Source of the DNA: Chiloscyllium plagiosum
Taxonomy: Eukaryota
Length of the DNA: 44,492 nt
Direction of reading: 5' to 3'
Assembly: GCF_004010195.1 (NCBI RefSeq)
Contig: NC_057719.1
Coordinates: 39,312,712 to 39,357,203 of the forward strand
The notes below the pieces were generated by a model. That model saw only the letters and a program-made list of their open reading frames with translations, did no database searches and was not told the DNA's origin. Shown here piece after piece: positions 4,724 to 41,597 of this stretch. The first letter of the stretch is position 1, and each line of letters opens with the position of its first letter. The position numbers and the translations under genes were made by a program.

Positions 4724-4941
4724 GGCAAAAGTGAGGACTGCAGATGCTGGAAACCAGAGTTTAGATCAGAGTGGTGCTGGAAAAGCACAGCAGGTCAGGC
4801 AGCATCCGAGGAGCAGGAAAATCAATGTTTCTGGCAAAAGCCCTTCATCAGGATGAAGGGCTTTTGCCCGAAACGTCAATTTTCCTGCTCCTCATATGCT
4901 GCCTGACCTGCTGTGCTTTTCCAGCACCACTCTGATCTAAA
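4724..4941. mobile_element. Fold-back Penelope-derived short element, family A, copy P1
   Basis: ~90-bp inverted arms (4759-4849 / 4852-4942). Matches the terminus of the coding PLE at 23164. Degenerate TSD ccccaggaccaaagatcta / ccccagacaagatcta. Confidence 0.85.
4822..4852 (-). ncRNA. Minimal hammerhead-like motif, family A, decayed
   Basis: Reverse complement cCTGATGA-a-gggc-tttt-gcca-GAAAcattga. The opposite arm retains GGGCTTTTGCCC-GAAACGTC. Confidence 0.6.
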
Positions 4942-6403
4942 CCCCAGACAAGATCTATCCCAGAAGACTGTGATGCAAGGGAGGAAATAGCTGAGACGTT
5001 AACTGGATATCTTTGCAACCTCTTTGGCCTCAGGCAAGGTTCTAGAGGCCTGGAGAATGGCCAAAACTGTTCCTTTGTTTAAGAAGGGAAATAGTGATAA
5101 TCCAGGTAACTACAGGCTGATGAGCCTGGCGTCAGTGGTGGGGAAGCTGTTAAGAAGACAGTGAGAGACAGGACTTTTTCACATCTGGAAACAAATGGAC
5201 TTGATAGGGATAGGCAGCATGGATTTGTGCAGGGAAGGTTATGTCTCACCAACTTGATTGAGGTTTTTGTGGAGGTAACAAGAATGATTGATGAAGGAAG
5301 GGCAGTAGATGTTGTCTACATGGACTTTAATAAGGTATTTGAAAAGATACCTCATAACAGTCTAGTACAGAAAATAGAGGCTCATGGGATCTGGAGTGAG
5401 CTGGCTAGATCGATACAAAACTGGCTCAATCATTGAAGACAATAGCGGTGGAAGGGTGCTTTTTGGAAAGGAGATCAGTAATTAATGTTGTGCTGCAGGG
5501 ATTAGTGCTGGGATCTTTGTTTATAGTACATATATTATATGTAGGAAAATGTGGGTGGTCTCATTAGTAAGGTTGTGATGATACCAAAATTGGCAGGTTG
5601 CAGAAAGGCAGATTGTCAAGGGATACAGTGGGATATGGATAGATTGCAGATTTGGGCAGAGAAAGGCAGGAGGAGTTGAATATGGACAAATGCTGACTGG
5701 TGCATTTTGATAGGTCAAATTCAGATGTGAATTATACAATAAATGGCAGAACCCTTAAAGCATTAACATCTGGGTGTAAATATCCACATATTCCTGAAAG
5801 TGGCAACACAGATGGATAAGATGGTAGATAAGGTTTATAGAAGGTGCATACACCTCGCACACCTTCATTGACTGTGGCATCGAATATTAAAGTTGGCAAA
5901 TTATGTTAGAACTATATAAAACTTTAATTAGGCCACATTTAGAAAACAGCATGCAGTTCTATTCGCCAAACTACCAGAAGGAGATGGATGCTTTGGAGAG
6001 GGTGTAGAGATGGTTTACCAGCATGTTCCTAGTCTGGAGAGTTTTAGGGATGAGGAGAAGTTGGGTAAACTCAGATTTTTTTCATCAGAAAGACAGAGGC
6101 TGAGGGGCAACAAGTGATCAAAATTGAGAGACGTAGATAGGATGGATAATCTGAGGCTTTTCCCCAGGGTGGGAAAGTCAATTGCAAAAGGGCACACGTT
6201 CTTACCTTAAGAGGGGGTAAAGGTTAGGGGAGAAATGCAGGCAAAACTTTTCAGAGGGTGATGGGTGCCTGGAAGGCACTGCCTTGGATTTGGTGGAAGC
6301 AGGCATGTTAACAACATTTACGGCATATCTTGATAGACAGATGAACAGGAGATGAACAGAAGGATGCAAACCATGTAAGGGCAATGTGTAGCTGGTCTAA
6401 GTA

Positions 6404-6433
6404 AGAATTAGAATTAGAATTAGAATTAGAATT
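6404..6433 (+). repeat. (AGAATT)5 microsatellite in the CR1 3' UTR
   Basis: Directly visible. Confidence 0.9.
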
Positions 6434-7730
6434 GGTGTACCAAAGGGCCTGTGCCTGTGCTGTATTGTATAAGTCTACAGTGGACCAAATGGGAGGAGGG
6501 GGGAGACATTCAAAAAGAAGCCGGGGAGAGTACAGGTCCAACATAGTACGTTTAAAGGGAAATGAAGGAGCAATAAGTTCACAGGGCTTATTGGGCGTCG
6601 AGGACAATTAGGACTGCACAGAGAAAGTAGGGCATTTAGCAAGTTTGAAGGGAGCAATTCAGCTGTGGCCCTAAGGGAATATAGGAAGTGTAGGAGGGAA
6701 CTTAAGAAGAGCAAAAAGGGGCATGAAAAATGACTTACGAACAGGATTAGGAAGAATCCTAAGATATTTTATAAATACACTAAAAGGAAGAAGTTCCCAG
6801 GGAAACAGTAGGACCCATTAGGGACCAAGGGGGCAACCTGTGAGTGAAGCCACAGGATATTGGAAGGTGGTTGAATAAATACTTCTTCTCTTCGGTCTTC
6901 ACTCTGGAAAAGGAGAATATAGGTACGAATTCAGGAAAAAGGGACTGGGAGGAACTTGCACAGGTGACATAGAAAATGGGAAGGTATTGGAGGCTGGTAG
7001 GCTTAAAGCCAGACAAGAACACTGGCCCAGCTGAAGTGCACCTGCGAGGCGAGGCAGAAAATCGCAGGGGATCTGACACAAATTTTTATTTTCTCTCTGG
7101 CCACAGGGAAGTGCCAGAGGACTGGAGGACAGGTAATGTCATTCCACATTTTAAGAGGGATAGTAGAGGTAAGCCAGGAAATTACAGACTGATGATTGTC
7201 ACGTCAGTGGTAGGGAAATTATTGGAGAAAATTCTGAAGGGAATTAATACCCACTTGGACAGACATGGGCTAATTAGGGATAGTCAGTGTGGCTTCATCA
7301 GAGGGAGATGATGCCTAACAATTTTTTTGAAAATGTAATCAAGCATGTGGATGACAGAAATTTAGTTAATGTAATTTATATTGATTTTAACAAAGCTTTT
7401 GACAAGGTCCCAAACAGGGCACTGATTGAGAAGGTTAAAGCACATGAACTGAGGGAAACTTGATGAAATGGATCAGAAATTAGCTTAGCAATAGGACACA
7501 AAAGATAATGGAAGAAGGCTGTTTGAGTGACTAATGACCACTGTCCATTGGTGTACCACAAGGATCAACATTGGGACCCTTATTGTTTGTTATAGATGAA
7601 AATATGAGAGGAATGTTAAGCAAATTTGCAAGATTGTTAGAGTGGTTAATAGCAAAGAAGTTAATTATAGTTTACAGGAATATATAAATGGGTTGGTCAG
7701 ATGGGCTGACCAGTGGCAGATGGAATTTCA

Positions 7731-8062
7731 CAGAATGATTGAAATCCTACAGCGTGGAAACAGGCCATTCAGCCCATTGAGTCCATACTGACCCTCTGAA
7801 GAACATCCCATCCAGATCCAACCCTCTACCCTACATTTCCCATGGCTAATCCACCTAACCTACATATCCCTAGTCTTTATGGGCAATTTTGCATGGCCAA
7901 AGCACCTAACCTGCACATCTTTGGACTGTGGGATGAAACTGAAGCACACGGAGGGAGCCAATGCAGACATGGGAAGCATGTGCAAATTCCAGTCACCCAA
8001 GGTGGAATTGAATCTGGTGCTGAGAGGCAGCAGTGCTAACTAGTGAACCACCGTGCCACCCT
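7731..8062 (-). mobile_element. HE1-type SINE inserted in element A RT region
   Basis: Same head, body and tail as 3767-4126; host WQMEF / ..KWEVMHF rejoins across it. Confidence 0.9.
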
Positions 8063-9846
8063 CAGAAGTGGGAGGTGATGCATTTTTGAAGAAACAAGAT
8101 GAGGGAGTATTTTATGAATGGCAGGACACTGGGTAGTTTAGAGAAACAGAATGATCTTAGGGTAATTATTCACAGAGCCCTGAAGGTGGCAGAGCATTGA
8201 ATAGGATAGTTAAGAATGCACATGGGCACTTGCTTTCATCAGTGGTAGCACAGAGTATAAGAGCAAGGAGTTGTACAGAGTGTTGGTCAGGCAATAACTG
8301 GAGTACTGTGTGTAGTTCTGGTCACTTCACTACAGGAAGTATGTGACAGCACTAGAGGGGGTCCAGAGTATGGTCACCAGGATACTTCCTAGAAATGGAG
8401 AAATTGAGCTGTAAGAAGAGATTAGATAGGCTTGGATTGTTTTCTTTAGAGCAGAGAAGACTGAGGAGGGGGGCATGATTGAGGTGTGTAAGATTGAGGG
8501 GTAGGGACAGGGTGAATAGAGAACAGCTGTTCCCCTTGGTTGAGTGATCAATCATAGTTTTAGTGTAAGGGGCAGGAGGTTCAGAGAAGATTTTGAAAAA
8601 AAATGATCAGTCAGTGGGTGGTGGGAATCTGGAATGTATTGCCTGAAAAGGCAATGGAGGCTGGAAATTGTATAACCTTTAAAAAATATTTGGATGAGTG
8701 CTTCAAATATCCTAACAATCAAGGATATGGGCCGAGTGCAGGAAATTGGGATTAGCACACTTTTAGTTATGTTAGTGCAGGCTCGATGGGCTGAAAGGTG
8801 TTTGCTGCACTGTATGACTCTAGGAATCCGTGAGTATTCGTCTTCTAGAGAGTGAGAATGCAGGGGTAATGTAGATAATAAAGAAATGGTGGATGAAACA
8901 AATAATTTGCTTGTCTCTTCACTAAAGAGGATACAAAAAAGAATATTCCAGTAATATCTGTAAATCAGAAAGAAGAGAGAGAGGAAATTAATGAAATTAT
9001 CATTAGGAAAGTGGCTAAAAGCAAACTTGCTGAAATGACAACCACAAGGGAAGTTGTACTAAGCAAACTGATGGAGTTGTATGTTAGAAGATACCAGGTC
9101 CCAGTAGACTAAAAGAGGTGACTAATGAGTGAGTAGATGCATTGGTGTTAACTTTCTAACATTTCCTTGATTCAGAAAACATTCCATCAGACTGGAATGT
9201 TGCAAATATAACCTCTTTATTCAAGAAGGGGAGAGAGGCAGAAAGTAGGAAACTATAGGCCTGTTGTTTTGACATCTATCATGAGAAACATGTCAGAATT
9301 GATCATGACAGAAATTATAGGAGTGCATGTAGAAGTACTAAAGGTAATCAGGAAGAGACTGTGTGGTTTTGTCAAGAAGGAATTGTTAATAAATTTATTG
9401 GAATTATTTGAAGGAATAACATTTGCTATAGATAAAAGGGAGTCTGTAGACACGCTGCAGTTGAATAGTTGAATTTCCAGAAAGTGTTTGATAAGCAATA
9501 CAAAAGGTTGCTGCAGAAAATAAAAAGCTGAGTGTAGGGGTAACATATTAGCATTGGATAGAAGATTGGCTGGCAGAAAACAGAGTATGCAGACCTGGGT
9601 CTTCACCTGATTGGCAGGTTGTGAGGAGTATGGCTCTGCTAGGTTCTGTGCTGGGTCCTCAACCTTTTATAATTTATGTTCATGACTGAGATAAGAGGAG
9701 TGAAAGCATGGTAGCTAAGTTCACAGATCACACCAGGAACTGTAGAAAAGTTAAGTTCTGCAGATGACATAGGAGGTTACTGATTGATTGATTGATTGAT
9801 TAAGTGTGAGTGGGCAAAAATCTGCCAGATGAAGTCCATATTTTTA

Positions 9847-9947
9847 ATATTCAGACATGTTATTAATAACCTCTGAAGCAGATGGGACATGAACGCAGAC
9901 CTTCTAGCTCAGAGGTAGGGACATCACCACAGCACCACAAGAGCCCC
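9847..9947 (-). mobile_element. Short tRNA-derived SINE-like element (~110 bp family)
   Basis: Reverse complement gggctcttgtggtgctgtggtgatgtccctacctctgagctagaaggtctgcgttcatgtccc...; homologues at 25150-25238, 23110-23163+24864-24890 and 36790-36870. Confidence 0.65.
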
Positions 9948-10085
9948 CCAAATAGAGTATAATGTGGCAGAAGTAAAATATTCACTTTGTCAGAAAGAAT
10001 TTTTAAAAAGTGAAGTATTATTTAAATGGAGAATGACTGTTGAAATTGAAGTGCAGAGAGATTTAGTTGTTCTAGGGCATGAGCT

Positions 10086-10297
10086 CGAGAGTGTGGTGCT
10101 GAAAAGGCACAGCAAGCCAGGCAGCATCTGAGGAGCAGGAGAATTAACGTTTCGGACATAAGCTTTTCATTAGGAATGAGCCTGATGAAGGGCTTATGTC
10201 CGATACGTCAATTCTCCTGCTCCTCTGATGCTGCCTGGTCTGCTGTGCCTTTCTATTCTAGACCCTGATCTCCAGCATCTGCAGTCCTCACTTACTC
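10086..10297. mobile_element. Fold-back Penelope-derived short element, family A, copy P2
   Basis: Inverted arms centred at ~10178; CTGATGA at 10182-10188. TSD ctagggcatgagct (10072-10085) / ctagtgcacgagct (10298-10311). Confidence 0.85.
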
Positions 10298-11234
10298 CTA
10301 GTGCACGAGCTGCAAAGGGTTGGTATGCAGGGACAACACTTGATCCTCTCCTTTATGCAAAATTAATTGAATTTAAATGTAAGGTTGTTATACCACAGTT
10401 ATACAGGATACTGGTAGGTCACATCACAAACAATTTCAGTCTCCTTTTTGAAATAAGGATGTAAATGCATTGAAGGTAGTTCAGAGGAGGTTTACCAGAT
10501 TCATAGCTGGAGTGAGTTGGCTGTCTTCTGAAGAGAGGCTGGACAGACTGGGCTTGTTTCCATTAGACCTTAGAACAGTGAGGCGTGACTTAATTGAAAT
10601 GTATAATATCCTGAATGGTCCTGAAAAGATGGAAATGGAAAGGATGTTTTCCTGTGTGTTAGTCCAGAACTAGGGACCATTGTCATAAAATGCCAAAAGG
10701 TAATAGTAAAACAGTAGAAGGGATTTTTTTTTTGTCTCAGTAGTTTGTGAGACTTTGAAACTCTGCCTCAGAAGGCTGTGAGGTGGGATCATTAAATATC
10801 TTTAAGGCAGAAGAAGGTAGATTCTTGTTGGACAAAGAAATCAAATGTTATTTGGGGAAGGTGAGAGTTTGGAATGCGGAACAAATAGTTCAGCCATCTT
10901 TTTGAATGTGGAGCAGAATCAAGGGGCTGAATAGTCTACTTCTGTTCCTATTTTGTATGTTCATGTAGAAAAGAAAGTTGGAAAAATACAACATTTTTTA
11001 AAAACTGTTCATTCCAAAAGGCATTTAAAAATGAAGATAAGCAAGTGAAATTATTGAAATAGCAATATATTGAATGAGAATGAAATGCAATTTTACAATT
11101 TCTGGACATGAGAGTCTGAACACTGGTGAACTCTTGGTTTTATTAGGTTTAAAAATCAGAAGTGAATGTAGGTTAAAGTTATCAATACTAAACTACTTTT
11201 TTTGCTATACTTAAAACTATGTTGCGGATACCTA

Positions 11235-11505
11235 TAAAAAGGAACAGGAGTACGCTATTTGTTCCTTCAAGCTTGCTGTCATTCAATATGCTCTATGATC
11301 ATGGCTGATTATCCCACTTGGTGTCCTGTTCCTACTTTCCCTCTATACCCTTTGATTATTTTATCTCAAAGAACTATGTTTAACTCCTTCTTGAAAGCCA
11401 CCTCAACTCCTTTCTATGACAGAATTCCACAGTCTCCCTATTTTTTGGGTGAAGAAATCTCATCTCAATCCTAAATAGCTTACCCTATATCCTTAAACTG
11501 TGACA
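11235..11505 (-). mobile_element. Decayed CR1-clade 3' end
   Basis: Similar to the 3' end at 15624-15910 (ggaacaggagta...ccattc...tatgatcatggctgat; agaattccaca). Confidence 0.7.
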
Positions 11506-23163: not shown

Positions 23164-24863
23164 GGAGAAAGTGAGGACTGCAGATGCTGGAGATCAGAGT
23201 CGAAAGTATGGTGCTAGAAGTCAGGCAGCATCCAAGGAGCAGGAGAGTCGATGTTTCTGGCATAAGCCCTTCATCAGGAATGTGGGCTGGGGGCTGAGAG
23301 ATAAATGGGAGAGGGTGGGGCAGGGGGGAAGGTAGCTGAGAATGGGATAGGTAGATGAAGATTGGGAAGAAGGTGATAGGTCAGAGAGAAGGGTGGAGTG
23401 GATAGATGGGAAAGTTGATGGACAGGTTAAGAGGGTGGTGCCGAGTTGGAGGTTTGGGACTGGGATAATGTGGGGGGAGGGGAAATGTGGAAACTGATGG
23501 AATCCACAATGATCTCATATGGTTGCAGGGTCTCAAGGCAGAATATGAGTCATTCTTCCTCCAGACGTCGGGTGGTAAGTGTTAAGTAATGGAGGAAGCC
23601 CAGGACCTGCATAGCCTTGGCGGAATAGGAGGGGAAGTTGAAGTGTTCAGCCACGGGGTGGTGGGGTTGGTTGGTGCAGGTGTCCCAGAGGTGTTCTCTG
23701 AAATAATCCACAAGTTGGTGTCTTGCCTCCTCGATGTAGAGGAGACCACATCAGATGCAAAGGACATAGTAGATGACATTGGTGGAGGTTAAAGCAAATG
23801 TCGTGTCAGATATGGAAGGATCCTTGGGGGCCTTGGACGGAGGTGACGGGGGAGGTGTGGCACAGGTTTTGCACTTCCTGCGGTGGAAGGGGAAGGTGCT
23901 GGGAGTGGGATTGATCTTGGAGGGAGAGTGTGGAGTTGCCGAGAGAGTTGCGGGGAGATTGGTCTCTCTGGAATGATAATAGGGATGCAGAGGTAAATAT
24001 ATCTCTGATGGTGGGGTCCATTTGTAGGTGGCAGAAGTGGCGGAGGATGATGTGATGTATACAGAGGTTGTGGGGTGGAAGGTGAGGAAGAGGGGCGTTC
24101 TGTCCTTGTTGTGTTGGGAGGGATGGGGTTTGAGGGCGGAAGTGTGAGAAGTGGAGGATATGCGCTGGAGGGCATCATCGACCACGTGGGGGTGAAATTG
24201 CGGTCTTTGAAGAAGGTTATCTAGAATTTTCTAAGGTAGAAGTGGTCATCCTGGGAACACATGCGACGGAGGCAGAGGAATTGAGAATAAGAGATGGCGT
24301 TTGTACAGGAGGTAGAGTGGGAGAAGATGTAGTCCAGGTAGCCGTAGGAGTCGATGGACTTGAGTAGATGTCCGTAGTTGGTCGATTGCTGGAAATGGAG
24401 ATGGAGAGGTCCAGGAAGGGGAGGGAGGTGTCCAGGAGAATTTGAGGTCAGGATGAAAGGTCTTAATGAAGTTGATGAACTGTTCAACCTCCTCGTGAGA
24501 CCACAAGGTGGCACCAATACAGTCGTCGATGTAGCGGAGTAACAGGTTGGGAGTGGCGCCTGTGTAGCTGTGGAAGATGGAATGTTCCATGTAGCTAACA
24601 AAGAGGCAGGATTATCTGTTTGGTTTGATGGAAGTGGGAGGATTGGAAGCAGAAGTTGTTAAGGTGAGGACCAGTTCAGCCAGGCGGATGAAGGTGTCAT
24701 TGGAAGATTACTGGTTGGGACGGCGTGACAGGAAGAAACGGAGGGCTTGGAGGCCTTCGTCGTGGCAAATGGATATGTACAGGGACTGGATGTCCATGGT
24801 GAAGATGAGGCATTGGAGCCAGGGAAATGAAAGTCTTGGAGGTGGTGAAGGGCGTGGGTGGTG
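23164..24863 (-). mobile_element. Penelope-like retroelement, family A: decayed RT plus GIY-YIG endonuclease and 3' pLTR
   Basis: RT motifs FTMDIQSLYISI and LLRYIDDCIG; CCHH-like linker (RRKCKTC); GIY-YIG NVIY...CGLLYI.E, VAEHFN, LEEE.LIF.LETLQP. Inserted into a short SINE with a degenerate tccctcctg / tcccatctg repeat. Confidence 0.92.
23247..23280 (-). ncRNA. Minimal hammerhead-like motif in the PLE pLTR, family A
   Basis: Reverse complement ttcCTGATGA-a-gggc-ttat-gcca-GAAAcatcgac, sense to the PLE ORF and downstream of it. Confidence 0.7.
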
Positions 24864-25433: not shown

Positions 25434-28259
25434 TAGAGTCATAGAATCATAGAGATGTACAGCATGGAAACCCATCCATGCCGACCAGATATCCCAACCC
25501 AATCTAGTCCCCCCTCTCACCCTAAATCTATGCCCTCTAGTTCTGGACTCCCCGACCCCAACGAAAAGACTTTGTCTATTTATCCAATCCATGCCCCTCA
25601 TAATTTTGTAAACCTCTATAAGGTCACCCCTCAGCCTCCGATGCTCCAGGGAAAACAGCCCCAGCATGTTCAGCCTCTCCCTGTAGCTCAAATCCTTCAA
25701 CCCTGGCAACATCCTTGTAAATCTTTTTTGAACCCTTTCAAGTTTCACAACATCTTTCCAATAAGAAGGAGACCAGAACTGCACGCAATATTCCAACAGT
25801 GGCCTAATGTCCTGGACAGCCGCAACATGACCTCCCAACTCCTGTACTCAATACTCTGACCAATAAAGCATACCAAACGCCTTCTTCATTATCCTGTCTA
25901 CCTGTGACTCCACTTTCAAGGAGCTATGAACCTGCACTCCAAGGTTTCTTTGTTCAACAACACTATCTAGGACCTTACCATTAAGTGTATAGGTCCTGCT
26001 AAGTTTGTTTTCCCAAAATGCAGCACCTCGCATTTATCTGAATTAAACTCCATCTGCCACTTCTCAGCCAATTGGCCCATCTGGTCCAGATCCTGTTGTA
26101 ATCTGAGGTAACCCTCTTCGCTGTCCACTACAATTCCAATTTTGGTGTCATCTACAAACTTACTAACTGTACCTCTTATGCTCGCATCCAAATCATTTAT
26201 GTAAATGACAAAAAATAGAAGACCCAGCACGGATTCTTGTGGCATTCCACTGGTCACAGGCCTCCAGTCTGAAAAACAGTCCTCTACCAGCACCTTCTGT
26301 CTTCTACCTTTCAGCCAGTTCTGTATCCAAATGGCTAGTTCTCCCTGTATTCCATGAGATCTAACATTGCTAATCAGTCTCCCATGGGGAACCTTGTCGA
26401 ACGCCTTACTGAAGTCCATATAGATCACATCTACTGCTCTGCCCTCATCAATCTTCTTTGTTACTTCTTCAAAAAACTCAATTAAGTTTGTGAGACATGA
26501 TTTCCCACGCACAAAGCCATGTTGCCTATCCCGAATCAGTCCTTGCCTTTCCAAATACATGTACATTCTGTCCCTCAGGATTCCCTCCAACAACTTGCCC
26601 ACCACCCGACGTCAGGCTCACCGGTCTATAGTTCCCTGGCTTGTCTTTACTACCCTTCCTAAACAGTGGCACCACGCTTGCCAACCTCCAGTCTTCCGGC
26701 ACCTCACCTATGACTATCGATGATACAAATATCTCAGCAAGAGGCCCAGGAATTACTTCTCTGGCTTGCCACAGAATTCCAGTTACACCTGATCAGGTCC
26801 TGGGGATTTATCCACCTTTAACCGTTTCAAGACATCCTGCACTTCCTCCTCTGTAATCTGGACATTTTGCAAGATGTCACCATCTATTTCCCTACAGTCT
26901 ATATCTTCCATATCCTTTTCCACAGTAAATACTGATGCAAAATATTCATTTAGTATCTCCCCCATTTTCTGTGGCTCCACACCAAGGCCACCTTGCTGTT
27001 CTTTGAGGGGTCCTATTCTCTCCCTAATTACCCTTTTGTCCTTAATATATTTGTAAAAACTCTTTGGATTCTCCTTAATTCTATTTACCAAAGCTATCTC
27101 ATGTCCCCTTTTTGCCCTCCTGATTTCCCTCTTAAGTATACTCCTACTTCCTNNNNNNNNNNNNNNNNNNNNNNNNNNNNNNNNNNNNNNNNNNNNNNNN
27201 NNNNNNNNNNNNNNNNNNNNNNNNNNNNNNNNNNNNNNNNNNNNNNNNNNNNNNNNNNNNNNNNNNNNNNNNNNNNNNNNNNNNNNNNNNNNNNNNNNNN
27301 NNNNNNNNNNNNNNNNNNNNNNNNNNNNNNNNNNNNNNNNNNNNNNNNNNNNNNNNNNNNNNNNNNNNNNNNNNNNNNNNNNNNNNNNNNNNNNNNNNNN
27401 NNNNNNNNNNNNNNNNNNNNNNNNNNNNNNNNNNNNNNNNNNNNNNNNNNNNNNNNNNNNNNNNNNNNNNNNNNNNNNNNNNNNNNNNNNNNNNNNNNNN
27501 NNNNNNNNNNNNNNNNNNNNNNNNNNNNNNNNNNNNNNNNNNNNNNNNNNNNNNNNNNNNNNNNNNNNNNNNNNNNNNNNNNNNNNNNNNNNNNNNNNNN
27601 NNNNNNNNNNNNNNNNNNNNNNNNNNNNNNNNNNNNNNNNNNNNNNNNNNNNNNNNNNNNNCCCTTTCTTATTTCTCAGTTCCATCCAAATAACTTCCCT
27701 GGATGTATTTCTGGGTATATCCTCCCTCAGCACAGCTGTAATGCTATCCCTTATCAAAAATGCCACTCCCCTCCCTCTCTTGCCTCCCTTTCTATTCTTC
27801 CTGTAGCATTTGTATCCTGGAACATTAAGCTGCCAGTCCTGCCCATCCCTGAGCCATGTTTCTGTAATTGCTATGATATCCCAGTCCCATGTTCCTAACC
27901 ATGCCCTGAGTTCATCTGCCTTCTTCCCTGTTAGGCCCCTTGCATTGAAATAAATGCAGTTTAATTTATTAGTCCTACCTTGTTCCTCCCTGCCCTGACT
28001 CACTTCTGTTCTCAGCTGTACCCATCCTAGTTTAAATCCTCCCAAGCAGTTCTAGCAAATTTCCCTGCCAGTATATTAGTCCCCTTTCAACTTAGATGCA
28101 ATCCGTCCTTCTTGTAGAGGTCACTTCTACCTCAAAAGAGATTCCAATGATCCAAAAACGTGAACCCTTCTCCCATACACCAACTCCTCAGCCATGCATT
28201 CATCTGCTCTATCCTCCTATTCCTTCCCTCACTAGCTCGTAGCACTGGGAGTAATCCAG
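25434..28259 (-). mobile_element. Relatively young HER1/CR1-type LINE (ORF1 end, ORF2, 3' UTR) spanning an N-gap
   Basis: APE CIYFNARGL...AITETWL; RT 212-aa ORF with QHGFVRGKSCLTNL, YMDFSKAFD, SKFVDDTK; C-terminus RPLLEYCVQFWSP. Frameshifted. Confidence 0.95.
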
Positions 28260-29814: not shown

Positions 29815-30110
29815 TATCACCATGTTACTAACAACTTCTGAAAGCTCCCTGTGGAGAGCAACCTGGCACTTCAAAATTATTTTCTTCGATTCGCTTCAAC
29901 TTTGAAGCTGGAAAATAAAATTGTGATTTGACTTTTTTTTCCTTTTAGATTAGATTACAGTGTGGAAACAGGCTCTTCGTATCACCATGTTACTAACAAC
30001 TTCTGAAAGCTCCCTGTGGAGAGCAACCTGGCACTTCAAAATTATTTTCTTCGATTCGCTTCAACTTTGAAGTTGGAAAATAAAATTGTGATTTGACTTT
30101 TTTTTCCTTT
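29815..30110. repeat. 131-bp direct duplication flanking a 34-bp retroposon tail
   Basis: 29815-29945 and 29980-30110 differ at one base seen (gaagct/gaagtt). The spacer is the minus-strand HE1/HER1-type 3' tail. Confidence 0.92.
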
Positions 30111-30124: not shown

Positions 30125-30960
30125 TAATTAGTAAGTTTGTAAATGACACCAGTGAAGAAGGTTATCTAAGATCACAAAGATATCTTGATCAGTTGTGTAA
30201 ATAGGCTAAAGAGTGGCAGATGGAGTTTAATTTGGATAAATGCCCAGGTATTTCATTTTGGTAAAAGAAACAAAGGCAAGACTTATGTAATTAAAAATAG
30301 GGCTTTGGGTACTGTGAGGGTACTGAGAGATAGTGAGGACTGCAGATGCTGGAGATCACAGTTGAAACATGCGTCACACGAAATGCACAGCAGGTCAGCC
30401 AGCATCCGAGGAGCAAGAGAGTTGACATTTCGGGCATAAGCCCTTAATCAGGAAGGGCTTCTGCCCGAAACATCGACTCTCCTGCTCCTTAGATGCTGCC
30501 TGACCTGCTGTGCTTTTCCAGCACCACATTTTTTGACTTTGGATATTGTTGTAGAACAAAGAGACCTAGAGCTTCACACATCTAATTTTTTTGAAGTTTG
30601 CATCACATATAGGTTGGTGAAAAGGCATTTAGCATGCTTGCCTTCAATGTTCAGATCTTTAGTATAGACGTTGGGGGATTTCAAGACTAGGGCACTTATC
30701 TTTAGGGTGAGAAGAGAAAGATTTTAAGGACTTGAGGGGCAATTTTTGTTTTTTTTACACAGTCGTTCATGTGTAGAATGAACTTCTGGTGTAAGTGGTA
30801 GCTGCAGCTATAGTTACCACATTTAAAAGACATTTAGATAAGGACATGAATAAGAAATATTTGAAGGGATATAGGCCAAGTGAAGGCAGGTGGGACTAAT
30901 TTAGTATGGGATTATGGTTGGTATGTACAGGTTGGACCCAAAGGTCTGTTCAGAGCTGTG
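30125..30960 (+). mobile_element. Decayed, internally deleted CR1/HER1-type 3' fragment
   Basis: SKFVNDT, WQMEFNLDKC and a 3' UTR like the other copies. Confidence 0.8.
30316..30536. mobile_element. Fold-back Penelope-derived short element, family A, copy P3
   Basis: Arms centred at ~30449 (gcccttaatcaggaagggc). TSD-like ctttgggtactgt (30303-30315) / ctttggatattgt (30537-30549). Confidence 0.8.
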
Positions 30961-32029: not shown

Positions 32030-32155
32030 AAATCAAAGAACTGCAGATGCTGAAAATCAGAAACAAAAACAGAAATTGCTGAAAAAACTCAGCAGATCTG
32101 ACAGCATCTGTGGAGAAAAAGTAGAGTTTATGCTTTGGGCCCAGTTCTGAAGAAT
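32030..32155 (-). mobile_element. Probable decayed PLE terminus of a further family
   Basis: aactgcagatgctgaaaatc...ctcagcagatctgacagcatctgtggag parallels the family A terminus (actgcagatgctgga...cagcaggtcaggcagcatc) and is followed by ttCTGAAGAa. A similar relic lies at ~35505-35615. Confidence 0.5.
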
Positions 32156-32517
32156 AAAGGAACTCAATATTGTTTAAATGGAGAAGGATGGCGGAAAGTT
32201 GCAGCACAGAGAGATTTAGGAGTCCTCCTCCATGAATCATAAATAGCTAGCGTCCAAAAGCATCAAATAACGTGAGCATAACCAATCTTGATATTATTGT
32301 AGCATTTAGTCAAGGGCACCAAAATTTCCTAACAAAGTGAACTCAATGAGAATTGGGAGAAACTCTCTCTTGGTTAGAACTACACTTAACACAAGTACCC
32401 CTCCAAGACACCATCCTGACATGGAAAATATTGATGTGGAGGTGCCGATGCTGGAGTGGGGTGAGCAAAGTTAAAAATCACACAACACTAGGTTCTAGAC
32501 CAACAGGTTTATTTGGA

Positions 32518-32555
32518 AGTACTAGCTTTCGGAGCACTGCTCCTTCATCGGGTAG
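32518..32555 (-). ncRNA. Minimal hammerhead-like motif, family B
   Basis: Reverse complement tac-CCGATGA-a-ggagc-agt-gctcc-GAA-AGCT-A-gta: stem I tac/gta, palindromic AGCU, CUA triplet. Confidence 0.65.
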
Positions 32556-32966
32556 CTAGTGGGGCAGAATCATAAGACACAGAATGTATACCACAAGATC
32601 ATTAATTCAAACAACTGATATGATATATTGAACAAACCTAGATTGTTGTTAGGTCTTTCATCTTTCAGAAAGGGTTGCAGGTTTTGATTCATTAATATGT
32701 AAATCCCAAAAAGTCTTTCAAGTCACAGTCCCAATAAACCTAAGGTTTTATTTTTTAAAAAGTGACATCTCAGCTTAGACAATGCATTAAAGGTGTGAGG
32801 TTAGAGTCTGTCTGTATTCCAATCTTGAGTCAGATTGGTTCTATTTCCAAAGTAGGAATTTATAAAATGTCACATGGATTGACTGCCTGCAGACTGTGTG
32901 CTTTTGAGCAAAATAGAATGTATCTGCAAATACAATTCTGCAAATGCAAATTCACTCCATAGACTT

Positions 32967-32967
<1 letters not shown>

Positions 32968-32999
<32 letters not shown>

Positions 33000-33000
33000 G
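32968..33000 (+). repeat. (TG)n(AG)n compound microsatellite inside the PLE 3' region
   Basis: Directly visible. Confidence 0.9.
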
Positions 33001-33755
33001 AGGAGAGTGTGATGAAGTATAAGCCTGTGAGAGGGTGTGCATGTGGGTGACAGTGTGGGGGGTGTATGTCTGAGACATTGTGTTTATGACAGAGGGTCTG
33101 CATGAGTGTATGTGTGCTTGTGTGTGAGTCTATGTGACAGTGTATAGTGTACTGGGGTCACCTGTAGTGTGACATGAACCCCAGATCCCAGTTGAGGCCA
33201 TCCTCATGGGTTGGAATACAGACAGAGTCTAACCTCACACCTTTAATGCATTGACTAAGCTGAGATGTCACCTTATTTTTAATAAAACCTTAAGTTGTCT
33301 TGAGAATGTGACTTGAAACAAATTCTGGGATTTACATATTAATGAATCGAAACCTGCAACCCATTCTAAAAGGTGAATACTTTAACTCAGTTAAACCAGA
33401 TCTCATCCCATGAGATACTGCTTTCCATGCAGGCTCAGGTGTACTGCCTACTGATTTGGTTCGCCACACACCATTTTGTGGTCCATTACTAATTACTTGT
33501 AAAGCATGATTTATGATTGGACCTCCTAAACAAAAAAATCACAGGAGGGTGGGAAGGAACCCCAGGGCTGAACCAGGTCGGCTTAAGAAATATCTATTTT
33601 ACCAATGTATGCCTTCAAAATTCCTGAAATTAAATTATATTCCAGTGAGCATGCACTGATTTGAAAATATTTTTACTTGAATGGGATGGGACAGAAACTA
33701 GACAAAACAGTCAAAACATATGAGACACCATATATACTCCACTCATGAACTGTAA

Positions 33756-34095
33756 CTGCCGCACGATAGCTCAGTGGTTAGCACTGCTGCATCACAGTGC
33801 AAGAGACCCAGTGTTGATTCCACTCTCTGGTGACTGTGTGGATTTGGCACATTATCCCCATGTTGGCGTGGGTGTCACCCTGGATGCTCTGGTATCTGCC
33901 CACAGTCCAAGGATGTGCAGGTTAGGTGAATTGCCATGCTAAATTGCCCATCGTTTCCAGGATTAGCCATGGGAAATGTAGGGTAACATGGATAGGTAGT
34001 GGGTGGGTTTGGGTAAAATACTCTTTGGAGGGTCAGTGTGGACTCAATTGGCCGAATGGCCTGCTTCCATGCTGTAGGAATTCCATGATTCTATG
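33756..34095 (+). mobile_element. HE1-type SINE
   Basis: A box tagctcagtggttagc, body gatgtgcaggttaggtgaattg, tail ccatgattctatg. Confidence 0.9.
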
Positions 34096-34131
34096 GAAGG
34101 TTTAACAGCAATCTATGTTTGTTCGATATAT

Positions 34132-35132
34132 ATGGACTTTAGTAAGGCGTTCGGCAAGGTTCCCCATGGCAGACTGGTTGGCAAGGTTAGGTCTCATGAA
34201 TACAGGCAGAACTAGCTATTTGGATACAAAATTGGCTCAAAGATAGAAGACAGAGGGTGGTGGTGGAGGGTTGTTTTTCAGACTGGAGGCCTGTGACCAG
34301 GATGGAGTTTAATTTAGGTAAATGCGAGGTGCTGCATTTTGGGAAAGCAAAGCTTAGCAGGACTTATACACTTAATGGTGAGGTCCTAGGGAGTGTTGCT
34401 GAACAAAGGAACCTTGGAGTGCAGATTCATAGCTCCTTGAAAGTAGAATCGCAGGTAGATAGGATAGTGAAGAAGGCGTTTGGTATGCTTTCCTTTACTG
34501 GTCAGAGTATTGAGTACAGGAGTTGGGAGGTCATGTTGCGGCTGTACAGGACATTGGTTCGGCCACTGTTGGAATATTGCATGCAATTCTGGTCTCCTTC
34601 CTATCGGAAAGATGTGGTGAAGCTTGGAAGGGTTCAGAAAAGATTTACAAGGTTGTTGCCAGGGTTGGAGGATTTGAGCTATAGGATTTGAGCTATTCTG
34701 AGCTATAGTTGAATAGGCTGGGGCTGTTTTTCCTGGAGCATCAGAGGCAGAGGGGTGACCTTATAGAAGTTTATAAAGTCATGAGCAGCATGGATATGAT
34801 TAATAGACAAAGTATTTTTCCTGGAGTAGGGGAGTTCATAACTACAGGGAATAGGTTATGGGTGAGAGGGGAAAGATATAAGAGACCTAAGAGGCAACGT
34901 TTTCACACAGAGGATGGTACGTGTATGGAATGAGCTGCTAGAGGAATTGATGGAGGCTAGTACAATTGCAACATTTAAAAGTGATCTGGATGGATATACG
35001 AATAGGAAAGGTTTGGAGGGATATGGGCCAGGTGCTGGCAGGTAGGACTAGATTGGGTTGGGATATCTGGTTGGCATGGATGAGTTGGACCGAAGAGTCT
35101 GTTTCCGTGCTGTACATCTCTCTGACTCTATG
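34132..35132 (+). mobile_element. HER1/CR1-type 3' fragment with internal deletion at ~34300
   Basis: YMDFSKAF, RPLLEYCMQFWSP; closely matches the reverse complement of 25434-26420. Confidence 0.92.
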
Positions 35133-35200
35133 TAATATCAGTCGTATGTCACAATGAACTTGTGCTATAAATTCTGTATCTTATGATCCTGCTCCATTAG

Positions 35201-35238
35201 CTACCTGATGATGGAACAGTGCTCCGAAAGTTAATACA
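35201..35238 (+). ncRNA. Minimal hammerhead-like motif, family B right arm
   Basis: tac-CTGATGA-t-ggaac-agt-gctcc-GAA-AGTT-A-atac. Confidence 0.6.
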
Positions 35239-35699
35239 TCCAAAGAAACCTGATGGATTATAATCTGGGGCTGTGTGATTTTTAACCATGGAAAATATTA
35301 CCATTCCTTTGCTATCTGTTGGTCAAAATCCTAGAGGTCTCTCCCTAAAAGTACCTATGGGTGTACTTAGATCATACAAACAGCTGCAGTTCAAGAAAGC
35401 CACTCACCACAACCTAAAAGGACCATTAAGAATACACTGGCTAGTTAGCAATGGAAGCATACTTCCTAATAATTCACAGAAAGCTCATTGTCATCTTTTC
35501 CATTAAAGCAAAGTAGTGCAGATGCTACTAACCTGAAATAAAATTTAAAAAATGCTGGAAAAGGTGGACAAACGATAATTAGCGTTTCACTTGGATGAAC
35601 ATCTCTCAGAGAATTGACCCTAAGAAGGTGGATAGAAACCTCCCCCCCAACAGATCTGCCCACTGGTGCATTTGGGAACGGTCAAAAAAAGTTCCAATA

Positions 35700-36240
35700 T
35701 TACATTCCCACGTAAATACTTTGTTTTGTATTGGAATTTTGTGTGTTTAGCCCCTCTTTAAAAATGAATCCGCTCTTCCGCTTTTTAAACTAAATTAATC
35801 TTGCGCCTTTGTAGCTTTCCCCACCAACGCAGAGCCTGGGTCTCCGTAGCTGCTTTAAGTTCACGCGATCTGCCTTTCATTTGGTAGTGTCCGGTAGTCT
35901 GCGGTCGTCAGCTGGCATTGAATGCAGTAAATTCTCCTCGGAATGTGTGCTCTGTGTAGCAGTGGGAAAGGGGAGGGAACATGCTAGGACGAGGCGAGCT
36001 GTTAGCCTGGAGGAGGGAAATTCCTCAGGGGATCCAGGAATGCACTGACAGAGAGCAGGGTTTGGTGTCTGTGGGTTTTCAGAGAAAAAAAAACTAGGTT
36101 GATAAGTCAATCGCAGGAAAGGAAGAGCAATTGCGTATTTCACGCAGGAAGGCGGATGTTGATGTTGCAGTTTGTCATGAGATGGGGAGGAGGCCGGCTC
36201 AGAGCATAGCGGGTTAAATCAGAAAGTTCCGGAGCCTCTA
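35700..36240. promoter_or_regulatory. CpG-enriched non-repeat region, candidate promoter/enhancer
   Basis: About 20 CpGs in ~530 bp against CpG-depleted flanks; perfect kB site GGGAAATTCC at 36015-36024; ETS-like cttccg/caggaa motifs. Confidence 0.45.
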
Positions 36241-36590
36241 ACAGATGGGAAAGAATTAAGTGAGCAAACGAAAATGATAATTAGACAGAAATTCGACTGA
36301 AAATGCCTTACAATTTAGAAGACTCATATTAGTAAGTTTATTTTCACATGATTCTTACAATCCACAATAATTTTGTCAAGCGTCAGATGGCAGAGGGACC
36401 TCTTTCAAGATGTATTCCCACTATATCTAGACCTCAAAGTGACAAAATTCTCCGATGATGCCAGACCCTGGAGAATTCTCCAAGACCAAAATAACCATTC
36501 TGTGATTTCCCCGTTTTAAACCAGTCTGCTGAGATGCTAAGCTGCCATTCCACAATATAAAGATTTGTCACTTGACTACAATGTGGGAGG

Positions 36591-36776
36591 GTGTGGTGCT
36601 GGAAAAGCACAGTAGGTCAGGAAGCATCCGAGGAGGGGAAGAGTCCACGTTTCTTGATGAAAGGCTTTTGCCCGAAACGTCGACTCTCCTGCTCCCCAGA
36701 TTTTACCTGACCTGCTGTGTTTTTCCAGCACCACACTTCGACTCTAACCTCCAGCATCTGCAGTCCTCACTTTCGC
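36591..36776. mobile_element. Fold-back Penelope-derived short element, family A, copy P4
   Basis: Perfect 15-bp TSD ctacaatgtgggagg (36576-36590 / 36777-36791). Centre cgtttc-TTGATGA-a-aggc-tttt-gccc-GAAACGTC-ga. Confidence 0.9.
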
Positions 36777-37681
36777 CTACAATGTGGGAGGACTCGTGGC
36801 ATAATGGTAGTGCCAGAAAGCTGGGGTGCAAGGTTTCAGAGGTGTCATAACATCTCTGACCAGGTTCATTAAAGTTGCCTGCCTGAGATGTGGGCTGCAA
36901 ATTTGAACTATCCCAACGTAACATTCTCATCCTATTTCTGCCCTAGTCTTCAACTCCATCCCTCAATCTTGTTATGCAAATTCGTTCTAGAAATTACCTA
37001 CAAATGTTCAACAAGAAAAACATGTCCCAACCATAGTATAAATTGATTTTGAAATATTCCCATCTAGTCTCCATCTTGTTTTTTTCCCATTTGTTCATGG
37101 GATATGGGCATTGCTGGCTAGGCTGAATGCTGTGCAATCAGTGAATTTCTTCAATTCTGACCTCAGTGGAGGACTCCTGATGCTATATTTGGTCAAATGC
37201 TGCCTTTGATGTCAAGAATGGTCAGTCTTGCCTCACCTCTGGTGTTCAACTCTTTTGTCATAACAGGGACCAAAGTTCCTGCATATTCATCACTGGATTT
37301 GTTATGGACAGACCACACACCTCAAAATATTTTAAGAATGTAGCCTAGACCCTAACTTTTTCTTATTTTAAAGGTAGATGTGAAGTGCATGTTGCGGATG
37401 TGATGCGACTGGTCAAACTACACAACATCAAGCAATTTATTTAAACACTAGTTAAAATACAAACAAGAGAAAAAGGAATTTATAACTATTGGAAAACTTA
37501 ACCGAATAATAGATACAGTACCTATTATAATTAACTGTTCCAATATAATAACATTCCATAAACACACACCCCTTGGCAAAAAGGTAAGTTCAGACACAGT
37601 CTCTTATGCAGTTTTCCAATCCAGGAGGAAACAACATCAAGAAAGATTTCAGAGAAAGTAGCAGCTTGAAATCATTTACCA

Positions 37682-38015
37682 AGGCACGATGACTGAGTGG
37701 TTAACACTGTTGCCTTACAGAACCAGTGACCCGGGTTTGATGCTAGTCTTGGGCGACTGTCTATGTTGAGTTTGCACACTCTCCCCGTGTCTGCGTGGGT
37801 TTCCTCCGTGTGCTCTGATTTCCTCCTACAATCCAAAGATGTGCAGGTTAGGTGAATTGGCCATGCTAAATTGCCCCATAGTGTTCAAGGATGTGTGGGT
37901 CAGGTGCATTGGTCAGAGGAAATGTAGGGTAATGGGTCTGGGTGGGATACTCTTTGGAGGGGCTTTGTGGACTTGTTGGGTCAATAAAGGCCTGTTTCTA
38001 CACTGTAGGGATTCC
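37682..38015 (+). mobile_element. HE1-type SINE
   Basis: ggcacgatgactgagtggttaacact head, gagtttgcacactctccccgtgtctgcgtggg body, cctgtttctacactgtagggatt tail. Confidence 0.9.
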
Positions 38016-38154
38016 AATTCCAGTTCTAAGCTTCCAACCGTTCTGGGACCACAAATAGCTTCTAACTGCTGTAGCTGAAAATACTAGAAAGCCCAGTCTG
38101 TGAGAACTGGCCACTCCCCTTCCATTGTCACAACTGTGTTAAAAAAAACCGGAA

Positions 38155-38698
38155 GGGGTACAAGTTATTGGTCAGGTCACATTTTGCGAATATTGCATGC
38201 AATTCTGGTCTCCCTCCTATAGGAAGGATGTTGTGAAACTTGAAAGAGTTCAGAAAAGATTTACAAGGCTGTTGCCAGGGTTGTTGGGTTTGAGCTATAG
38301 GAAGAGGCTGAATAGGCTGGGGCTGTTTGGAGGCTGAGGGGTGACCTTATAGAGGGTTATAAAATCATGAGAGGCTTGGATAAGATAAATAGACAAGGTC
38401 TTTTCCGTGGGATGGGGGAGTCCAGAACTAGAGGGCATAGGTTTAAGATGAGAGGGAAAAGATGTAAAAGAGATTGGAGGGGCAACGTTTTCACGCAGAG
38501 GGTGTGTATGTATGGAATGAGCTGCCAGAGAAAGTGATGGAGGCTGATATAATCATAACATTTAAAAGGCATCTGATGGATACATGAATAGGAAGGGTTA
38601 AGAGGGATATGGACCAGGTGCTGGCAAATGATTAATCTCAGCATGGACGAGTTGGACCAAAGGGTCTGTTTCCATGCTGTATCTCTCTATGACTCTGT
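38155..38698 (+). mobile_element. HER1/CR1-type 3' fragment
   Basis: EYCMQFWSP, ERVQKRFTR; tail ctgtatctctctatgactct. Confidence 0.9.
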
Positions 38699-38829
38699 GC
38701 CTCCTAAATTGTTGATTTACATTATCTCCAGTAGCCAGTTTGATACCTTTGCCTTTACAACCTCTCTTCAGAAAAAAAACAAGGACAAAATAACATTTCT
38801 AAAGTGATAATATCGTCACAGATGTCAGA

Positions 38830-39340
38830 GAGGCAATCTAATAAAGACATTGGACATGCCAAGAGAGGTTATGGTGAGATGGAGCAGGGTAGTATTGACA
38901 TAAAAGTGAAAACTAATGTGATATCACATGATGTCTCTGAAGACAGCTTGAAAATGAGAAATAAGAGAGTACCAATGATAAGTCCCTGGGGAGTACTAAA
39001 GTTAAAAGTATGGGAATGGAAAGACAAGCCATGGATGGCAATTCTCTATCTATAATAAGATAACTAAGAATAAAACTATGCAGATGCAGTCTTTCCTAGA
39101 TGGGCCATAGTGGATTGGTGTTGGAGAAAAATGATATGATTAACTGCATCAAAGGCTGCTGATAAAATGATAAGGAGTTATGGTTCACCTTTGTTACAGA
39201 CACATATGATATCATTTGCAACTTTGATAATTGCCTTTGGTGCAGTGGCACTGGCAGATTGGAGGAATTCAGTGTTCTGGGAAAAAGGGGCACAGACTAG
39301 AGAGTGATGACATATTCAACGATTTTTAAATGAGATGGTA
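38830..39340 (-). mobile_element. Ancient L2-like RT relic, probably continuing at ~40755-40887 and 41608-41840
   Basis: Reverse complement gives TPQGLIIGTLLFLI (GVPQGSILGPLLF-like) and LSAAFDAVNH. Confidence 0.6.
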
Positions 39341-39388
39341 GTTTCCGAGTCAGGACAGAACAAGAATTATTTTGTCAAGCAAAAAGAG

Positions 39389-40752
39389 AGACCGTATTGT
39401 TGAAGAGGAGAGTGTGAAACGGACTGGTAAGCTAGAAGAGATACTTGTTAGGAAGGAAGATGTGTTGGGCATTTTGAACAACTTGAGGATAGACAAATCC
39501 CTCGGGCCTGACGGGATATATCCTAGGATTATGTGGGATGCAAGAGAGGAAATTGCAGAGCCGTTGGCAATGATCTTTTCGTCTTCACTGTCAACGGGGG
39601 TGGTACCAGGGGACTGGAGAGTGGCGAATGTTGTGCCCCTGTTCAAAAAAGGGAATAGGGATAACCCCGGGAATTACAGGCCAGTTAGTCTTACTTCGGT
39701 GGTAGGCAAAGTAATGGAAAGAGTACTGAGGGATAGGATTCATGAGTATCTGGAAAGCCACTGCTTGATTAAGGACAGCCAGCACGGATTTGTGAAGGGT
39801 AGGTCTTGCCTTACAAGTCTTATTGAATTCTTTGAGGAGGTGACCAAGCATGTGGATGAGGGTAGAGCAGTGGATGTAGTGTACATGGATTTTAGTAAGG
39901 CATTTGATAAGGTTCCCCCTGGTAGGCTTATGCGGAAAGTCAGGAGGCATGGGAAAGAGGGAAATTTGGCCANNNNNNNNNNNNNNNNNNNNNNNNNNNN
40001 NNNNNNNNNNNNNNNNNNNNNNNNNNNNNNNNNNNNNNNNNNNNNNNNNNNNNNNNNNNNNNNNNNNNNNNNNNNNNNNNNNNNNNNNNNNNNNNNNNNN
40101 NNNNNNNNNNNNNNNNNNNNNNNNNNNNNNNNNNNNNNNNNNNNNNNNNNNNNNNNNNNNNNNNNNNNNNNNNNNNNNNNNNNNNNNNNNNNNNNNNNNN
40201 NNNNNNNNNNNNNNNNNNNNNNNNNNNNNNNNNNNNNNNNNNNNNNNNNNNNNNNNNNNNNNNNNNNNNNNNNNNNNNNNNNNNNNNNNNNNNNNNNNNN
40301 NNNNNNNNNNNNNNNNNNNNNNNNNNNNNNNNNNNNNNNNNNNNNNNNNNNNNNNNNNNNNNNNNNNNNNNNNNNNNNNNNNNNNNNNNNNNNNNNNNNN
40401 NNNNNNNNNNNNNNNNNNNNNNNNNNNNNNNNNNNNNNNNNNNNNNNNNNNNNNNNNNNNNNNNNNNNNNNNNNNNNNNNNNNNNNNNNNNNNNNNNNNN
40501 NNNNNNNNNNNNNNNNNNNNNNNNNNNNNNNNNNNNNNNNNNNNNNNNNNNNNNNNNNNNNNNNNNNNNNNNNNNNNNNNNNNNNNNNNNNNNNNNNNNN
40601 NNNNNNNNNNGCAGAGTCAGAATCATTGGCGACCTTTAAGCGGCAATTGGATAGGTACATGGATGGGTGCTTAAGCTAGGACAAATATTCGGCACAACAT
40701 CGTGGGCCGAAAGGCCTGTTCTGTGCTGTATTGTTCTATGTTCTATGTTCTA
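39389..40752 (+). mobile_element. Young CR1 LINE RT fragment spanning an N-gap
   Basis: Open frame GNYRPVSLTSVVGK, QHGFVKGRSC, YMDFSKAFDKVP; CpG-rich; (gttctat)3 tail. Confidence 0.95.
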
Positions 40753-40887
40753 TAATGACATCACTTTTGAAGGTGGCAGGGAAAATACTTGTGGAGTGAA
40801 AACTGTTAACTGACAGCATGGGAGTCAGGAAGGGATGTAAGTTGGCTGATCAATAGTTTAGTAAAAGTAGCATTGACAGTAGGAGAT

Positions 40888-41597
40888 TTAAAGTTTTTGT
40901 GAAGATCTGTAGCTCGGAGCTAGCTGGATTCATTGTTGGTCTGTTCACTGACCGGGCAGACATTTTGTCCCCTTTCTAGTTGACATCATCAGTGCTGTGT
41001 TGCCTCCTGTGAAGTGTTGCTGAACTGTTCCGCTTTGAATTGATGTGGTTCTGTTTGAGCTGTTTCCAGTTAGTGTTGGTTCCGGTTTTGTATTGCAGCG
41101 GTTTGTATATTGGGTCCAGGTCAACGTGTTTGTTGATGGAATCTGAGGAGTACAACCATGCTTCCAGAAGTTCTCTTGCTGTTCTTTATTTAGCCTGTCC
41201 TAGTAATAGTTGTGTTGTTCCAGTCGAACTCATGGTTCCTGATGTCCATGTATATGGATATACATGGTATAGCCACTATACCAACTAGCAACCGATTGAC
41301 ACGACCAACTCTCCCTGATATCCATACACACGGACATCAAGAAGCTCGAGTTTGACTGGGACTTCACAATTATATGAGGACAGGCTAAACAAAAAACAAC
41401 AAGAGAATTCCTGGAAGCATGGTGGTACTCCTCGGACTTCATCAACAAACAAGATGACCTGGACCCAATATACAAACTGCTACAATGGAAAACTGGAATT
41501 GGCACTGACTGGAAAGAGCTCAAACAGAACCACATAAATTTAAAGCAGAACAGTACAGCAGCACTTCACAGGAGGCAACTGATGATGTCACCTAGAA
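40888..41597. mobile_element. Fold-back PLE, family C (GIY-YIG C-terminus plus pLTR)
   Basis: ~290-bp inverted arms (40973-41261 / 41318-41597); 10-bp TSD agtaggagat (40878-40887 / 41598-41607). Encodes EFDWD...GQAKQKTTREFLEAW...INK...LDPIY, a Penelope/Poseidon-type endonuclease end. Confidence 0.88.
40956..40995 (-). ncRNA. Minimal hammerhead-like motif, family C, CpG-decayed
   Basis: Reverse complement gca-CTGATGA-t-gtc...gac-AAAATGTC-tgc; two CpG transitions from gacGAAACGTC; stem I gca/tgc. Confidence 0.6.

Follow-up and report, generated by a model that had tools for sequence, protein, structure and literature searches.

The window, a stretch of 44,492 nucleotides (nt) of Chiloscyllium plagiosum DNA (assembly GCF_004010195.1, contig NC_057719.1, positions 39,312,712 to 39,357,203 of the forward strand), contains truncated copies of three families of Penelope-like elements, called here A, B and C. 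Each family carries a short motif that is almost certainly a minimal type I hammerhead sequence, located in the pseudo-long terminal repeats (pLTRs) of three Penelope-like lineages. The copies are listed below, with positions counted from the first letter of the window (RT, reverse transcriptase; UTR, untranslated region).

4724..4942: family A fold-back stub; cores 4824-4851 (minus) and 4850-4877 (plus); arms head to head at the core
10081..10299: family A fold-back stub; cores 10146-10173 (minus) and 10182-10209 (plus), both damaged
23164..24827, minus strand: family A 5'-truncated element; hammerhead 23250-23277, 3' UTR, long tail
24438-24827 and 23598-24375, minus strand: coding remnants of the same element; broken RT and linker plus GIY-YIG, respectively
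30327..30532: family A fold-back stub; cores 30424-30451 (minus) and 30447-30474 (plus)
32037..32171, minus strand: decayed remnant resembling a fourth, A-related family; weak match at 32141-32171 (plus), E 0.77
32431..33211, minus strand: family B 5'-truncated element; GIY-YIG end 33161-33211, CA-rich 3' UTR, long tail
32523-32551, minus strand: hammerhead of the same B element; U4 changed, AATAAA present
35133..35286, plus strand: family B end repeat; TATAAA upstream, hammerhead 35205-35233
36592..36778: family A fold-back stub; core 36654-36681 (plus), C3 changed; 15-nt target-site duplication
40956..41597: family C inverted pair of 5'-truncated GIY-YIG ends; hammerhead 40959-40992 (minus), damaged; half core at 41579 (plus)

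Fold-backs of about 190-220 base pairs (bp), with arms meeting at the core, account for four of the five family A sites. The stub at 4724..4942 has its long tail on the left, its short tail on the right and a shared flank word of 8 nt, and in the stub at 36592..36778 the left arm ends before reaching the core. The fold-backs form hairpins of up to about 90 bp (4759-4942, 10081-10299, 30327-30532 and 36592-36778). They mimic microRNA precursors and, if transcribed, would supply double-stranded RNA in abundance. The CA-rich 3' UTR of the B element is flanked by inverted arms (32657-32822 and 33211-33377, 79-90% complementary), which either belong to this insertion or represent another, inverted copy.

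The initial annotation had named eight sites in the window as minimal type I hammerheads. A covariance model, trained on 18 core-intact genomic copies (a hand-picked, related set; the E-values are rough), recovers all eight. Seven of them are found at E <= 0.003, five on the minus strand (32517-32557, 23244-23283, 40953-40998, 4818-4857 and 30418-30457) and two on the plus strand (35199-35239 and 36648-36687), while the eighth, 10176-10215 on the plus strand, has an E-value of 0.17. Partner arms are located at 4848-4883 and 30444-30480 on the plus strand and at 10140-10179 on the minus strand. The model gives 15 matches in the window at E <= 3. The statement that every copy has at least one substitution is correct for the window, where all 12 arms (eight A, two B and two C) deviate from the family core. 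The A and B arms are 1-5 bases off this core, and in each of the two C arms the damage lies in the 3' half. Among the B copies of the window, only 35205-35233 retains every invariant core base, yet it has other defects; the closing pair of its stem I and one pair of its stem II are broken. Minimum-energy folds do not reach the active hammerhead fold and were given no weight. The window copies are mutated stubs and are likely to be inactive. An Rfam scan of the window found no hammerhead family among its seven matches at E <= 5. The sub-threshold matches, mostly microRNA models landing on the fold-back hairpins, were discarded.

The motif is extremely abundant in the genome. Exact cores number 21,180 for family A and 16,625 for family B, with no control match for either. 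For family C, the core as first written has 84 exact copies and no control match, and other forms at N7 and position 17 are also seen. A generic core pattern gives 165,389 genome matches against 206 in the control. A 1-Mb unbiased sample contains 70 structurally complete motifs, compared with none in reversed DNA, and in 34 of 36 generic-pattern matches from the sample stem II is paired and helix III is palindromic. The invariant core CUGANGA ... GAAA ... UH is kept in the genomic copies. Tens of thousands of exact genomic cores refute the expectation that activity can be predicted for consensus sequences only. Nor is the additional base after CUGANGA peculiar to this animal, as had been thought, since it belongs to the published consensus CUGANGAH. 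This base, unpaired between A9 and stem II, is A in families A and B and U in family C. The sample also holds hammerhead families beyond A, B and C, with stem II of the form GGGTC/GACCC or GGGT/ACCC and helix I of the TT/AA type; the window contains one decayed relative, at 32037-32171.

A covariation check was run on the same 18 hand-picked, related copies, in which 88.9% of cells pair against 57.6% after shuffling, and the covariation score is 0.78 against at most 0.19 with slid partners. It had been claimed that the stems differ yet stay complementary and that helix III is a loopless palindrome, and both descriptions hold. Stem II is paired in 95.8% and stem I in 77.8% of cases, with two-sided changes at 8 of 10 pairs, and positions 15.2/16.2 of helix III pair in 17 of 18 copies (10 CG, 3 GC and 4 UG). 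The closing pair G10.1-C11.1 is G-C in 17 copies and G-U in the remaining one. The covariation in this set leans towards the hammerhead structure.

Each motif family is tied to RT/GIY-YIG coding sequence and located downstream of it, in agreement with the proposal of three distinct Penelope-like lineages, and the predicted cut falls after GUC in families A and C and after CUA in family B. The proteins are about 27% identical between families. The coding sequence of family A consists of RT, a CxxxxCxxC linker and GIY-YIG in separate open stretches. Its 105 longer homologues are mostly proteins of 700-1,000 amino acids with RVT_1, PF26215 and PF28514, and GIY-YIG in some. Family B has the CxxxxCxxC linker and GIY-YIG in open stretches, with RT motifs in broken frames of a 3,415-nt element. 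In family C, a single frame of 658 amino acids runs from RT to GIY-YIG between direct hammerheads, with no linker. Direct hammerhead pairs delimit the B element of 3,415 nt and C elements of 2,431 and 2,502 nt. No fully intact A or B frame was found among the copies examined. Long Penelope-like copies often contain runs of N (window 27153-27661 and 39973-40610; loci L068-L098), so that intact elements are under-represented in readable sequence. Pfam, applied to ten short fragments, gave a weak GIY-YIG match (family C, E 0.013) and two unrelated weak matches, and a PDB search gave nothing at E < 0.001. Judged by the CX2-5CxxC linker alone, families A and B would be of the Neptune/Nematis type and family C of the Penelope/Poseidon type; the linker criterion for clade assignment is that of Craig et al. 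2021 (PMC8557442). The open reading frame (ORF) of family C passes through the hammerhead core, with its stop codon in loop II (locus L071, 2417-2430, minus strand; window 40959-40992), and the variable N7 is the third position of a Glu or Asp codon. The core of family C is therefore read both as protein and as ribozyme.

It is important to consider where the copies begin. Copy starts were counted in 1.2 Mb of unselected genome blocks and numbered relative to the first core base, which places the predicted cut at +28 in family A and at +29 in family B. The family A count of 152 arms comes from 166 rows after removal of 12 other-family and two gap rows; family B gave 72 arms. In family A, 83 of the 152 arms start at -14..+4, four start at -59..-15 and 13 are longer. 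The corresponding numbers for family B are 32 of 72 at -14..+4, seven in the 45 upstream positions and 17 longer. The starts of A and B copies pile up 4-8 nt before the core. When solo A arms in this zone are taken from the blocks and from the off-centre parts of the loci, 40 of 54 have unique flanks, with a mode at -4.

The base preceding the copies is also informative. Genome-wide, B copies cut off at A(-8) are preceded by G in 2,533 cases against 530 for A and T together, and A copies at A(-4) by G in 5,405 cases against 3,519 for A, the A count being inflated by palindromic joins. The family upstream sequence is retained in none of the 30 B loci inspected, and the G at the start is usually non-family. 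In seven solo A copies with a duplication adjoining the start, three have an extra G between the duplication and the element, and in four the G is common to the target. In full-length LINE-1 insertions, the cap is marked by an extra G (PMC11702581).

Family B has a TATAAA at -38, located 30 nt upstream of A(-8). The A(-4) of family A lies in a pyrimidine-A-pyrimidine context, which we take to fit the initiator consensus. Common to the A subfamilies are the word TTATCT, about 22-36 nt upstream of the core, and an AG that follows a pyrimidine tract (L007, 1440-1500; L087, 1440-1500; window 23278-23340). This region could stand in for a TATA or act as a splice acceptor. As the source of the pile-up, a 3' splice site was considered and rejected: the pyrimidine tracts ending in AG lie at about -18 in subfamily A1 and -26 in A2, yet no arm of the set examined for this ends at -15..-30. 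The pile-up in families A and B probably marks the 5' ends of capped, uncut RNA, most of the short copies being cDNAs (complementary DNAs) of such RNA.

A different origin of the pile-up could be a hotspot of joining or stalling, where the near-palindrome anneals two cDNAs or where the RT stalls at a bound protein. Microhomology at many junctions is in keeping with this, as is the location of 73 of the 152 A arms in fold-backs. However, solo copies show a pile-up in the same position (mode -4 in 40 clean solo A arms), the upstream drop is sharp, with four arms over 45 positions, and neither the TATA spacing of family B nor the G excess is predicted. Such a hotspot is quite improbable.

At the opposite end, family A arms stop near +80-95 or near +125-128. 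Among the 36 fold-backs in 1 Mb, a long tail is paired with a short tail in 30, and 23 share a flank word of at least 10 nt. The two tail lengths and the unequal tails on fold-backs match the two internal RT starts and the two-strand priming of a lizard element. In the whole B element, the coding region begins with an ATG at about +119, near the point where long tails end.

RNA reads were taken from a poly(A) single-cell run (X21) of an organism that carries the repeat, whose species may differ from the present one. Family B has 2,819 reads, with about 9:1 sense over the core. Its poly(A) tails begin after 2743 and 2746 (378 and 458 reads), 12-15 nt past AWTAAA, which places the used poly(A) site about 30 nt downstream of the predicted cut. 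At the cut itself the depth passes from 1,259 to 1,292 reads with no dip, although short cut fragments would be lost.

These arrangements allow us to propose the following explanation, which joins pLTR hammerheads with cDNAs of capped, uncut front ends in families A and B and is probably correct as a whole. RNA polymerase II would start at the A located 4 nt (family A) or 8 nt (family B) upstream of the core, driven by a promoter within the 3' UTR that precedes it. The element protein would nick both target strands, and reverse transcription would begin inside the RNA at two tail sites, about 80-127 nt past the core. From the 5' tail, the RT would reach the cap within about 90-135 nt, run off there and produce a stub; two such stub cDNAs, when joined, would give a fold-back. 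A long copy would arise when the RT starts from the 3' tail of a read-through RNA. A slow ribozyme would trim tandem or read-through RNA, most insertions having no need of cleavage.

The long B copies may be explained differently. The polyadenylated B mRNA would carry the RT start only near its 5' end, and long copies would then need one of two things: a circle, made by ribozyme cleavage and ligation of the RNA, or a transfer of the short cDNA from cap to 3' end by way of the repeated hammerhead region, a jump comparable to retroviral strong-stop transfer. The stubs would in that case be intermediates that failed. The order of B features (TATA, start, hammerhead, AWTAAA, used poly(A) site, GU-rich stretch, tail, ATG at about +119) agrees with this reading, as do the long-tailed copies ending close to the ATG. 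Circles were proposed by Cervera and De la Pena 2014 (PMC4209133), ligated ends would give no pile-up at the cut, and the accessible text of Schostak et al. 2008 (PMC2377424) sees no obvious route of pLTR regeneration. However, read-through past a leaky poly(A) site supplies the 3' tail more simply, and no circular RNA or jump has been seen, the joints in X21 reads being few and fitting genomic fold-backs. A poly(A) site is unseen for family A among the loose ends listed, and hammerhead mutants insert normally in vitro (PMC11167929). Circle or jump is therefore a doubtful route. To the same doubtful extent, the Neptune-type end repeat may be built like a retroviral LTR, with a promoter, a short R that corresponds approximately to the hammerhead between cap and poly(A) site, and an RT start. 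The stubs would then be integrated strong-stop-like cDNAs, and the long copies and the repeat would be regenerated by circularised RNA or by the cap-to-3' jump. If true, this would provide a mechanism of pLTR regeneration, filling the gap noted in PMC2377424, and a job for the ribozyme.

Several observations weigh against the explanation by hammerheads and capped, uncut RNA. Helix I is weak, with its outer pair broken in 10 of the 18 copies, and in the main A subfamilies it consists of 2 bp, a U.U mismatch and one further pair. Published minimal hammerheads cut poorly in vitro, with low cleavage as dimers (PMC4209133), and eight of nine frog hammerhead dimers failed to cut. Family C has no pile-up at all, with one of 29 arms (1 Mb of the sample) in the zone. 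Of the 54 solo A arms in the zone, 14 share upstream sequence or are pyrimidine-rich and may belong to other subfamilies instead of being true ends. The G excess of family A is modest, 1.5-fold over A; the clean solo set is small (for A, 7 of 14 have the G, and for B, 2 of 3); and an inverted arm could template the G in three of the 30 B loci, with microhomology possible in several more. The X21 reads show no position where many molecules begin, although such reads cannot show starts, and a depth step near the predicted start is explicable by read length or by embedded stubs. For family A, no poly(A) was found among the six loose ends listed (176 others exist), and its reads lie on both strands; both features would be expected for embedded stubs. 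The capped start is deduced from copy ends.

The cut site itself was examined for copies that begin there. Three of the 152 A arms start exactly at +28, compared with 12 over the 16 neighbouring positions (Poisson p about 0.04, small sample). In the first 100 of 3,814 pattern matches, judged by eye, about seven starts at +28 are clear and up to 13 are ambiguous. GA microhomology with the core accounts for many of the starts at +28, and neighbouring positions reach 7-9 per 100. The excess at the cut is a weak hint only. It might indicate that the ribozyme cuts a real share of the template RNA in vivo and leaves fossil copies starting at the cut, as the three arms and the seven clear cases would suggest. 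The small numbers, the high neighbouring positions, the GA microhomology and family B, with at most one of about 70 arms at the cut, make this rather unlikely.

The motif might instead be kept as a protein-binding or promoter structure that no longer cuts. The weak helix I, the abundance of uncut RNA in poly(A) reads and the low activity reported in vitro would be understandable in this case. However, the core bases are invariant across three lineages with proteins only about 27% identical, while all stems covary, and the lizard motif cuts with protein help (PMC11167929). Loss of cleavage therefore seems improbable. The chances are about even that the ribozyme is a slow cutter, acting as a dimer or assisted by protein, its predicted role being to trim RNA to unit length; dimer cleavage is attributed to Lunse et al. 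2017, as cited by the review PMC6765202.

Minimal hammerheads (min-HHR) in the pLTRs of metazoan Penelope-like elements were described by Cervera and De la Pena 2014 (PMC4209133). They share with the present motifs the CUGANGA-H core, the G-C closing pair, GAAA, the loopless palindromic helix III and the short helix I, and they likewise occur as several covarying families per genome, mostly in solitary truncated copies with some close pairs on opposite strands. The architecture, including the additional base, is already published, and the present finding adds the taxon and a very large count. The largest vertebrate counts given there are about 4,000 for coelacanth and 9,000 for Xenopus; the 165,389 matches reported here come from a different descriptor and are not strictly comparable. 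In its accessible parts that study, unlike the present one, did not map copy starts, and the term shark is absent from the searchable part of its supplement.

It is useful to compare these families with the Poseidon element PAc of Anolis (Frangieh et al. 2024, PMC11167929), which has two tail lengths, uses both strands and has uncut RNA as the main template, with no reads ending at the cut. Internal RT starts and protein-assisted cleavage were demonstrated for it in vitro. The ORF of PAc begins inside the hammerhead, whereas here the B ATG lies about 119 nt past the core and the C ORF ends inside loop II. A cap signature or poly(A) site is not reported for PAc in the accessible text. The EN+ Penelope-like elements of Craig et al. 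2021 (PMC8557442) are similar in their C-terminal GIY-YIG, partial tandems, inverted 5'-truncated copies and tail of 30-40 bp; their linker zinc-finger motif is shared by A and B and missing in C. The Drosophila virilis Penelope (PMC2377424) also has its promoter and start within the pLTR. However, the internal promoter of the fly element has no TATA, and an intron precedes the hammerhead; in family B a TATA lies upstream, and the start is predicted 8 nt ahead of the core. The pLTRs of Adineta Penelope (Arkhipova et al. 2013, PMC3846280) have a TATA and an initiator, and occur as head-to-head inverted pLTRs with target duplications. Non-LTR retrozymes (bioRxiv 10.64898/2026.07.22.740005), for which one cartilaginous fish was sampled, carry type I hammerheads derived from pLTRs. 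They form head-to-tail arrays, in contrast to the dispersed or fold-back copies of the window, where no such array was met; the rest of the genome was not searched for arrays. Neither a cap signature nor a strong-stop model for Penelope-like elements was found in the literature, with thin coverage of subscription papers and bioRxiv supplements. From tens of thousands of copy ends, the likely positions of the RNA start, of both RT starts and of the B poly(A) site can be mapped around the ribozyme, and these coordinates make the rebuilding of pLTRs and the purpose of the ribozyme in Penelope-like elements directly testable.

The window also contains dispersed fragments of another repeat class (785-1400, 5180-5390, 7320-7450, 34030-35120, 38320-38710, 39830-39950 and 42420-42800), which carry RT-like coding words and common 3' ends and presumably resemble LINEs of the CR1 type. 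At 29815-30110, two 131-nt copies, 99% identical and 165 nt apart, represent either a recent duplication or an assembly artefact.

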